Of a DNA stretch of 64,000 bases, positions 43,369 to 46,300 are shown piece by piece. The number at the start of each line of letters is the position of its first letter. The stretch's first letter is position 1. Under the pieces are notes generated by a model that had not been told where the DNA came from, searched no databases, and saw only the letters and a program-made list of their open reading frames with translations. This stretch comes from Lingula anatina (taxonomy: Eukaryota > Animalia > Brachiopoda): assembly GCA_051362555.1 (NCBI GenBank), contig CM120640.1:7192001-7256000 (forward strand), in the 5' to 3' direction. The position numbers were made by a program, and so were the translations under genes.

Positions 43369-46300
43369 ATGACTGATGTTACTGATAACGTGTCATCTAC
43401 CGGCTTGAAACCTGGTTCGGATTACGAGTCGTTTACGGTTGTTCAGTTAAAACAAGAACTAAAAAGAAGAGGGATTTCAGTGAAAGGCAAACCCCTTAAG
43501 GCTGACTTGGTAAGAAAGCAAACCACCGACTTCCGCTTTCTTATCACTTTCAGATAGTACTCATTGAATGCGTTTGTTGCACTCAACTTCAGTTGGATGC
43601 ACTTTGGACTAGCGCTGTGATGAACAGATAACTGTAAATTTTAAATTTGTTCAAATTAATTCATTTCTCACTGTAGTAATTAACTGATTACTTTTACATG
43701 TATAATAAAACGTGCACATCTGATACTGTACACAACGTACTTTGAAACTCATTAGAAAGCAAAAGATAGACATCATTATCTTTAAACCTAAGCATCGTAA
43801 TGAATATTTATGAGACAAAATTAGTGGACTTTGATTATTCTGTCAACAGAAATTCAGTGCCATGGAGTTTGAGGTATGAGAAACCTTTGCAAAGTATTAA
43901 ATAATATTAATAGGTGTGAAAAGTTAAAGTTGATCAGCTTCATGTGTATTATTTCAAAAGTGCTCAAATTTCTATATAAAATTATGCTGTATGTTTTTAA
44001 GTAAAATGTATTGGTGAATTACGCTCATTATATAGTAGATATTTATGCTTCCTATTTCAGATTAAAGTATTAAGTGACTCTGACAAAACTCAAAATAGTA
44101 CATCTGCTGAGTTAATTTTTCGAAAAGACAAACAATTAACGGATGTAGGACTCAATGGTGAATCAGTTGTGAGCAAGGCTCAGAATGATGCTGAACACAG
44201 ATTACACAAGCAAAGAATGCAGGATAGAAAAGAAAGATCTCGTATAGTGTTATGGAGAAAACCTTACACTACATTACAGTACTTTATTCAAGAGACATTC
44301 GTACTCTTCAAGGACTATAGTATAAGGTATCTTTTCTTGGTTATACTTCTGCTCACTTGAATTGATGTATATTTTAAATACTGTGATATATTTTGTGTAA
44401 TAATTTAATTTTTATTTCTTTTGACCCTGAAAATTTAATCATCTCTGTATAGCTGCTTATATAATTTTCTTTTGAATCATTTATTATTGAATTTTTTTTT
44501 CAGGACATGGAAGTCTTGGAGAACTGTAATGTTGATGACCTTTGTATTGCTTGGATTTGTGCTTGTTTACAATGTTAATGGGTTTCATCAAAAGGTAATT
44601 GATACATAAGAGGAATTAAAAAACGTTTTAGTTTTATAACTGTTCATAAACCCTTTCCACAATTCTTGAATTCGGGCACTAGTTTTATCAAAGTGAATCA
44701 CTAAATCAATTTACTTTGTATGAGTTTCAAGTAGCATGTCTCCTTAACTGTAGTTTACACAGGTTTGATAACATAAACATCAAGTAGATCACCACATCTT
44801 GAGTGTTGATGCAAAAAAACAAAAAACAAGAATTATTTGTATGATATCAGTTGGGTACACTAACCATAGTATGCTTAATTTTTCAGCATGTTGCTTCAGC
44901 CAAGAAAACAGTTCTTTGGTGTCTTTACTGGATTGGTTTAGGAATCCTATCATCAGTAGGCCTTGGCACTGGTCTACATACATTTCTCTTGTACTTGGTA
45001 AGGAAATGATTTAATGTATGTAATAGAACTAATAAGAGAGTATTTTGATAACCTTGTAGATCTGAATGCCTTCCATCGTTCAGTGTCTGTTGTTTTCATC
45101 CCACTAAGATGTGCTATATATTGTTGTTGTTTTTAGTTTTTTGTAAACATTCCTTCTGTGTGTTTGTTTTATTGAAAGTGACTTATCTGAAATGGCAAAT
45201 TATAATTTCTGTAATATAATCAGTGATTTGAGGTTCTACATTCTCTAATTAAATAATGTGTTGAACAAATGAATTGACTTCGTAGGATAAGTTCATCCCA
45301 TCTCATTTTTTTTCTTTCGCAATATTTTTTCCTGATCCATAAAATCCAACTCATATATTTGTCTTTTTTTTCATAGGGTCCCCATATAGCTGCTGTGACT
45401 CTTGCTGCATTTGAATGCATGTCTGTAGATTTCCCAGAACCACCATATCCTGATGAGTAAGCCTTGCCTCTGATACAAAACATTTTACAATTTAATTATC
45501 GAGACACAAAATATGTTTTAAATTAGTCAAAGTATACTTTATTTGCTCACATGCACCAGATAACTGTCAGTGATAATTACATTTACCATATTTAGGTATA
45601 TATGATTATGGGATATTTTATATTTATGTATTCTACACAACAAGCATCACTAAAAATACACCTATTGCACTGACTCGGTATTGTGCTTTAAATACCGCGA
45701 GCTTCAGAGTCCAAGGCAAGCTGTCTTTTTGAATTAATGATTTTCATCATTTTACTCAAGTATGGGTAAAACTATATGTATGATATCATTTGTTATTTTG
45801 ACTGGCCACAAATATGTTAATTTTTCATTGATTCATTGAAAGGACTAAAGATACATTATTATTGTATTTCAAGTATCCAAATGCATGATGATACTGTATG
45901 TATACAACTTAAAATAAAACCCAATGTTTCAAAAAGAAAATATACAAAAAGTAATGAAGTAATTGTTTTAAGAAAAAAAATTTAACTTTTTAAAATTTTA
46001 TTTATGCAAGTCACGGTAAATTATAATTGCCCTCCTTGTTCTCCACTTGTTTAGCATCATTTGCCCCTCCCAAGTAGGAACCAAAATGACTTTGTGGACA
46101 ATCATGAGCAAAGTTAGACTTGAAGCTATGATGTGGGTGAGTCAGCAACTTATTCCAAAGACGTTTTTATACAATAAATAATACCATAACACCAGATTCA
46201 TGTATTTGTTTGAGGGGGAATTTCAACATGTGCTATAGAGAAGAAACCAAATTGCTTACATATTTATTTATTGTAGAAAATACTCAAATTACTTTCCATT

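Follow-up and report, generated by a model that had tools for sequence, protein, structure and literature searches.

Introduction

VMP1 (TMEM49), an ER scramblase of the DedA/VTT family, is central to the formation of autophagosomes, lipoproteins and viral replication organelles. In the accessible sections of the published accounts, phospholipid scrambling and ER residence are described for the mammalian protein (PMC8077175, PMC8072408), the purified protein is reported to be oligomeric (PMC13262637), and organelle proteomics places VMP1 in the ER (PMC13061601). Nearly all of the VMP1 literature that we found concerns vertebrate forms, which carry no SAP domain. Canonical SAP domains are found in yeast Tho1, human Hcc-1/SARNP, hnRNPUL1, MKL1 and SAFB2, which are soluble nuclear proteins. 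For the SAP domain of SAFB2, the accessible part of one study reports that double-stranded DNA perturbs Lys53 and Arg45, that binding is micromolar and that RNA is not bound (PMC9958909).

Here we analyze a VMP1 gene of the brachiopod Lingula anatina that joins these two families. It lies in a window of 64,000 nucleotides (GCA_051362555.1, contig CM120640.1, positions 7,192,001 to 7,256,000 of the forward strand), in which an initial annotation had read an N-terminal SAP/HeH nucleic-acid-binding domain fused to VMP1. We conclude that SAP-VMP1 is a real, ancient and overlooked version of a much-studied protein, and that it belongs to the VMP1 and SAP families.

Results and discussion

Gene structure and transcription of Lingula VMP1

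The Lingula gene model comprises twelve coding exons (Table 1), and its 477-residue product is identical to RefSeq XP_013405400.1, the VMP1 isoform X1 of this species. Exon 1 is 141 nt long and ends before a GTAAGA donor; exon 2 follows a TTTCAG acceptor in phase 0. As the initial annotation had proposed, the SAP domain is completed across intron 1 and continues in frame into the VMP1 core, with a Pfam SAP score of 36.5 bits on the whole protein. The predicted 43509/44061 joint was borne out in all four RNA runs (1, 11, 9 and 12 reads; n = 33). These are raw reads from four of the nine runs under the Lingula anatina label, with joints listed from three reads upward. The nine downstream VMP1 introns listed carry 31–54 joint reads (median 45) versus 33 for intron 1, and we therefore conclude that most VMP1 transcripts include the SAP exon. 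The joint of intron 11 is absent from the list because reads are cut at repeats there.

Table 1. Features of the Lingula VMP1 gene, in positions of the window.
Feature	Position	Strand	Evidence
Coding exon 1 (aa 1–47): start Met, followed by SAP from helix 1 through the loop to mid-helix 2	43369..43509	+	Pfam SAP 37.9 bits, RNA depth, joint
SAP core (aa 19–51), interrupted within helix 2 by intron 1 (43510–44060)	43423..44072	+	Pfam, AF2 mean pLDDT 84.6
Micro-exon within intron 1, 24 nt; ATG 43862	43850..43873	+	RefSeq X2 start; in frame in older 485-aa record
Exon 2: completes SAP helix 2, then a weakly conserved linker and a conserved helix ahead of the membrane part	44061..44326	+	RNA joints, model, homolog alignment
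Exons 3–11: transmembrane and VTT/DedA core	44504..47785	+	Joints of introns 2–10, model, Pfam VTT E 7e-7
Exon 3	44504..44594	+	
Exon 4	44887..44997	+	
Exon 5	45377..45456	+	
Exon 6	46055..46136	+	
Exon 7	46358..46510	+	
Exon 8	46721..46801	+	
Exon 9	47028..47144	+	
Exon 10	47382..47443	+	
Exon 11	47683..47785	+	
Coding part of exon 12, ending in TAA; C-terminal helix	48188..48334	+	RefSeq protein match

Between 42600 and 49700, the reads of runs X7 and X9 are mostly 90–99% alike, in which runs X1 and X4 differ. Substitutions and indels are fixed in the X7 and X9 reads, among them the loss of three bases near 44175, and loose read ends of these two runs at 48475–48538, in the 3' untranslated region, point to an insertion that is absent from the window. 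These two runs represent a diverged population or a cryptic species that shares one species label. At least 23 VMP1 coding substitutions were classed among those listed, 18 of them silent and five not; one change in the diverged animals, seen in RNA reads, turns Pro into Leu in the loop insertion of the Lingula SAP domain.

That exon 1 is an annotation artefact, non-coding or part of another gene, is hardly credible. The absence of SAP from 25 of 73 invertebrate records would fit such an artefact, but the junction reads refute it at the RNA level, the fusion recurs across phyla, and three of the four exon-1 substitutions listed in the diverged animals are silent. Several of the SAP-less records moreover retain the end of helix 2, which points to a missed or alternative first exon. 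A search with exon 2 alone recovered only the VMP1 protein itself.

Upstream of exon 1, the read-covered leader contains two out-of-frame open reading frames (43275–43334, 19 codons; 43350–43364, 4 codons), the second of which stops four bases 5' of the VMP1 ATG and could affect start choice. NCBP3 lies head-to-head with VMP1, with ATGs at 42915 (−) and 43369 (+), 453 bases apart. The NCBP3 exon at 41351–41506 (−) scores 51.2 bits, stranded reads cover both genes, and the two probably share a bidirectional promoter.

The VMP1 core and the predicted membrane side of SAP

The Pfam VTT profile (PF09335) matches Lingula VMP1 at 30.2 bits (E 7e-7), just below the cut-off of 33.9, as it does most of the homologs scanned; the precomputed annotation of the protein holds PF09335 and PF27639. 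Over the aligned part, the core is about 60–67% identical to vertebrate VMP1. Pfam searches found no MAN1/Src1 C-terminal domain at E up to 1 and no ARMET_C match. Among solved structures no VMP1 chain was matched, and the full-length AF2 model is poor (mean pLDDT 64.9) and yielded no Foldseek match.

A signal-like hydrophobic segment is present in none of 66 SAP-VMP1 N-termini, and a basic N-terminal part of 16.6 kDa precedes the first membrane helix. Because of these two features, the VMP1 N terminus is predicted to be cytosolic or nucleoplasmic. In the accessible parts of the literature, we found no statement on its topology.

A SAP domain with a conserved basic face

Exon 1 alone matches the Pfam SAP profile (PF02037) at 37.9 bits (E 1.3e-9), well above the cut-off of 23.9, whereas the HeH profile reaches 13.6–14.9 bits against a cut-off of 28.9. 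The SAP half of the domain assignment made in the initial annotation thus stands, and the HeH/LEM half does not. The AF2 model of residues 15–60 agrees with the helix–extended loop–helix fold expected of SAP in predicting two helices with a mean pLDDT of 84.6, and Foldseek places Tho1 SAP structures on top (TM 0.81, E 0.1), with no row at E ≤0.001 for this very small domain. A feature search of the Atlas with residues 1–135 gave no usable match. By VIA-align, the SAP, HeH, LEM and CDNF/MANF domains fall within about 1.5 Z of one another (Z 5–6.7), and the fold therefore cannot identify the ligand.

The SAP domain itself is better conserved than its flanks, with a mean identity of 42% among 26 animal homologs, compared with 18% in the linker and 14% in the residues upstream. 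Helix 2 opens with a basic residue in all 66 SAP-VMP1s (Lys in 62); the Gly of the loop is retained in 64 of them, the Arg within helix 2 in 61 and the Arg closing helix 1 in 51. Their median net charge is +5. The Lingula domain keeps the Leu, Gly and Lys, has Val50 in place of the helix-2 Arg, contains a two-residue loop insertion and has a net charge of +3, and so appears slightly degenerate; the domain is degenerate in Holothuria and Sycon as well. The loop is about two residues longer than usual in Lingula, a sea cucumber, one further relative and, by eye, Sycon, which sit on separate tree branches. A SAP loop longer by about two residues is an HeH-like trait. Two tandem SAP domains precede the VMP1 core in an Amoeboaphelidium (aphelid) cluster and in other eukaryote sequences.

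What this domain binds can be approached from its relatives. One explanation is that it serves as a cytosolic-face module for a protein or anionic lipid, through which the scramblase would be regulated or positioned at contact sites; candidate partners are the ATPase domain of an Hsp70, a protein akin to BAF, a lipid-transfer protein and an autophagy factor. The structural tie favors this, as the BiP-bound SAP-like domains of CDNF and MANF, the emerin LEM domain and SAP30 equal the DNA-binding SAPs; the nearest Atlas models include ARMET_C and RNF34/RFFL, all under threshold; and the known jobs of VMP1, in the accessible parts of the literature, lie in the ER and cytosol. We nevertheless consider it rather unlikely. 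The solved structures nearest by sequence are Tho1, hnRNPUL1, MKL1 and Hcc-1, all nuclear SAPs, and no MANF, CDNF or LEM chain in the PDB was matched by sequence at E up to 0.1. The family has kept a strongly basic face on the domain, and BiP is luminal, whereas the VMP1 SAP is predicted to be cytosolic.

Alternatively, the domain could bind RNA on the cytosolic side, whether in ribosomes on the ER or in mRNPs, or else stray or viral nucleic acid, and thereby link scrambling to sites of translation, to ribophagy or ER-phagy, or to nucleic-acid clearance. Its top matches in sequence and fold, Tho1, Hcc-1 and hnRNPUL1, are proteins of RNA metabolism, an ER protein would encounter RNA without entering the nucleus, and one homolog shows a weak match to the LETM1 ribosome-binding domain (E 0.028). 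That match is below its cut-off and occurs in one of 26 proteins scanned, and the SAFB2 SAP bound double-stranded DNA and not RNA according to the accessible text of that study (PMC9958909); overall, we regard RNA binding as unlikely.

Distribution and evolution of SAP-VMP1

The initial annotation had taken human VMP1 to lack SAP and had named conservation of exon 1 in relatives as a check; the wider survey finds no SAP in the vertebrate records and finds the domain across invertebrate phyla and early fungi. Among the best 120 matches to the full protein, SAP is present in 22 of 47 invertebrate and none of 42 vertebrate rows. When a second search is pooled with the first, the counts are 48 of 73 and 0 of 63 (taxon-named rows in both cases), the second search being a profile of SAP-bearing N-termini and thus biased toward SAP carriers. 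SAP-VMP1 occurs in molluscs, annelids, arthropods, echinoderms, amphioxus, cnidarians, an ichthyosporean, an aphelid and early fungi. The profile search added Priapulus, a dragonfly, thrips, a termite, a locust, beetles, ostracods, sea urchins and crinoids, together with the cnidarians Clytia, Hydractinia and Dendronephthya. To our knowledge, the fly and worm proteins have no SAP domain.

Clustering at 50% identity gave 150 representatives, of which 130 contain the VMP1 core and 18 of these an upstream SAP. The ten of these 18 that were looked up include the chytrids Geranomyces and Batrachochytrium, Sorochytrium, the ichthyosporean Chromosphaera and the Amoeboaphelidium cluster with its two SAPs. 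In Lunasporangiospora, SAP scores 22.8 bits, just below the 23.9 cut-off, and in the sponge Sycon the domain is SAP-like by eye only, with no Pfam match.

A tree of 82 VMP1 cores, obtained by a quick search with SH-aLRT support only, broadly tracks species relationships. Seven vertebrates nest inside the SAP-bearing deuterostomes, and vertebrates therefore most likely lost the domain; SAP-less rows also lie inside the arthropod and fungal clades. SAP-VMP1 is the usual invertebrate form and probably the ancestral opisthokont form. The simplest reading of the tree is a single gain before the animal/fungal split followed by several losses, with separate gains in fungi and animals as the alternative. 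The gain may be older still, given three very divergent rows, two of which have a Pfam SAP.

A downstream Met and a putative short form

No other candidate first coding exon had been recognized before exon 2, a claim that we correct here, as intron 1 holds a micro-exon with AG/GT borders and an ATG in the strong context GCCATGG. RefSeq isoform X2, a protein of 434 residues without SAP, takes its first four residues from this micro-exon, which in an older 485-residue record is spliced in frame and interrupts SAP helix 2. None of the micro-exon joints reached the three-read listing limit in the four RNA runs, and thin read depth over it appears in one run only. The micro-exon form is at most minor in the sampled RNA.

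A Met lies within 15 residues after SAP in 53 of 66 SAP-VMP1 homologs, compared with 12 of 66 in the next 15 residues, a contrast that related rows overstate. By lineage, a post-SAP Met is found within 25 residues in 12 of 13, at offsets of 4 to 22. The median distance from this Met to the first core motif is 50 residues, and that from the vertebrate start codon to the same motif is 45. The Physella X2 isoform begins exactly at the post-SAP Met, the X2 starts in databases being automatic predictions. Six rows lack an early post-SAP Met: Lingula X1, Owenia, Aplysia, an octocoral and two more. In RefSeq X2, the micro-exon Met of Lingula stands in for the missing Met of exon 2.

The post-SAP Met pattern together with the Lingula micro-exon suggests selection preserving a SAP-less form. 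The VMP1 gene probably makes a long form with SAP and a short form, of which vertebrates retained the short one, and on sequence grounds vertebrate VMP1 resembles the short form that the ancestral gene would have made. A short-form start would also explain how vertebrates could lose SAP without losing the gene. SAP-less records from several molluscs, a nemertean and a horseshoe crab have an unrelated start and coincide with SAP-VMP1 only from the second half of helix 2 onward, and by eye a hemichordate record shows the same join. Because this shared join point is the site of Lingula intron 1, the intron position, judged from proteins, looks common across bilaterians.

It is also conceivable that SAP works in cis or has become an almost dispensable relic, either folding back to damp VMP1 activity or turnover, or belonging to an exon that tunes translation of the short form. 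Repeated loss (in vertebrates and in rows of the arthropod and fungal clades), the upstream ATGs at 43275 and 43350 along with the conserved downstream Met, and the degenerate domains of Lingula, Holothuria and Sycon are all compatible with this. From chytrids to amphioxus, however, the domain retains its surface Lys and its basic charge, which fits an external ligand better, and the tandem SAPs of some lineages suggest avidity; we therefore judge the cis or relic explanation distinctly improbable.

A proposed role in chromatin tethering

The reading that we favor, with somewhat less than even confidence, is that Lingula VMP1 is an ordinary VMP1 scramblase with an ancient SAP domain that may bind chromatin and thereby keep the long form in the inner nuclear membrane, the likely SAP-less short form serving the bulk ER. 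Nucleic-acid binding and a nuclear-envelope function, as put forward in the initial annotation, accordingly keep the status of conjectures drawn from the protein's makeup. Membrane proteins with a small extraluminal part can diffuse to the inner nuclear membrane and are enriched there if they bind chromatin. The N-terminal part of about 17 kDa would be small enough to pass along the nuclear pore membrane, and DNA binding by SAP would then retain long VMP1 by diffusion and retention. The conserved Lys and Arg of SAP-VMP1, eight residues apart, may correspond by their spacing to Lys53 and Arg45 of SAFB2. Oligomerization of VMP1 could give a SAP of micromolar affinity enough avidity, and the tandem SAPs of the aphelid also suggest avidity. 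Local scrambling would be expected to feed growth, re-forming or repair of the nuclear envelope, or nucleophagy. The short form would start at the downstream Met, or in Lingula at the Met of the micro-exon.

Several findings speak against tethering. MANF/CDNF (BiP), emerin (BAF) and SAP30 use this fold to bind proteins and tie with the DNA-binding SAPs at Z 5–6.7; the Lingula domain departs from its family in its loop insertion, its Val for Arg and its +3 charge; and vertebrate VMP1 functions without SAP. The literature, judged by titles and the beginnings of abstracts, yielded no account that places VMP1 in the inner nuclear membrane.

Extended to the ancestor, chromatin tethering would mean that animal and fungal VMP1 began as a chromatin-tethered scramblase with two forms from one gene, one with SAP that provides lipid flip-flop in the inner nuclear membrane and one without SAP in the ER, of which vertebrates kept only the short one. 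We view this extension as possible but doubtful. If it is true, the field has studied half of the ancestral biology of VMP1. Should SAP tether VMP1 to chromatin or RNA, it would connect a lipid scramblase physically and directly to nucleic acid, and comparison of the long and short forms would offer a simple test of lipid equilibration where the nuclear envelope grows or is repaired.

Comparison with known systems

The initial annotation had ranked the fusion as its best candidate for an undescribed system, and this needs to be tempered. Each part belongs to a known family, public databases (Pfam, UniRef) already label the architecture in their precomputed annotation, and it is the usual form in invertebrates rather than a peculiarity of Lingula. 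That no publication describes the fusion accords with our search of the literature, mostly outside subscription journals, which found none. SAP is not mentioned in the accessible parts, supplements aside, of two papers on DedA evolution and a VMP1 review (10.1101/2020.12.18.423352, PMC7818093, PMC11294092). New here are the conserved post-SAP Met that matches the vertebrate start and the micro-exon Met of Lingula.

The closest described protein, vertebrate VMP1, has the same core and is orthologous on our quick tree, but it has no SAP and corresponds to the part from the post-SAP Met onward. Behind its start Met, 59 of 63 vertebrate rows show a basic stretch followed by NG, and 45 of 65 SAP-bearing rows show a similar one under a looser pattern. 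The invertebrate and early-fungal SAP-VMP1s, named 'SAP domain-containing protein' in UniRef, are identical to Lingula VMP1 in architecture, and 57–66% of the members of their ESM Atlas clusters carry SAP. Lingula differs from them in its two-residue loop insertion and in having no helix-2 Arg and no exon-2 Met, with the micro-exon Met instead.

With the canonical SAPs of Tho1, Hcc-1/SARNP, hnRNPUL1, MKL1 and SAFB2, the VMP1 domain shares profile and predicted fold, but those proteins are soluble and nuclear, whereas here SAP sits on a multi-pass ER membrane protein. The MANF/CDNF C-terminal SAP-like domain is ER-associated and matches in fold (Z 5.6–6.2), but it is luminal, binds BiP and has no sequence match to the VMP1 SAP, before which no signal segment stands. 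We reject membership in this group, with 66 of 66 N-termini lacking a signal-like segment and no ARMET_C match in Pfam. The LEM/HeH tethers (emerin, LAP2, MAN1, Src1/Heh1) likewise carry the same fold class at the N terminus of a membrane protein, with the emerin LEM domain at Z 5.9. Membership in HeH/LEM is rejected on the HeH score (13.6–14.9 versus 28.9 bits); VMP1 also has no MAN1/Src1 C-terminal domain, and its membrane part is a scramblase. The mode of working that we propose for the VMP1 SAP would nonetheless be that of the LEM/HeH tethers.
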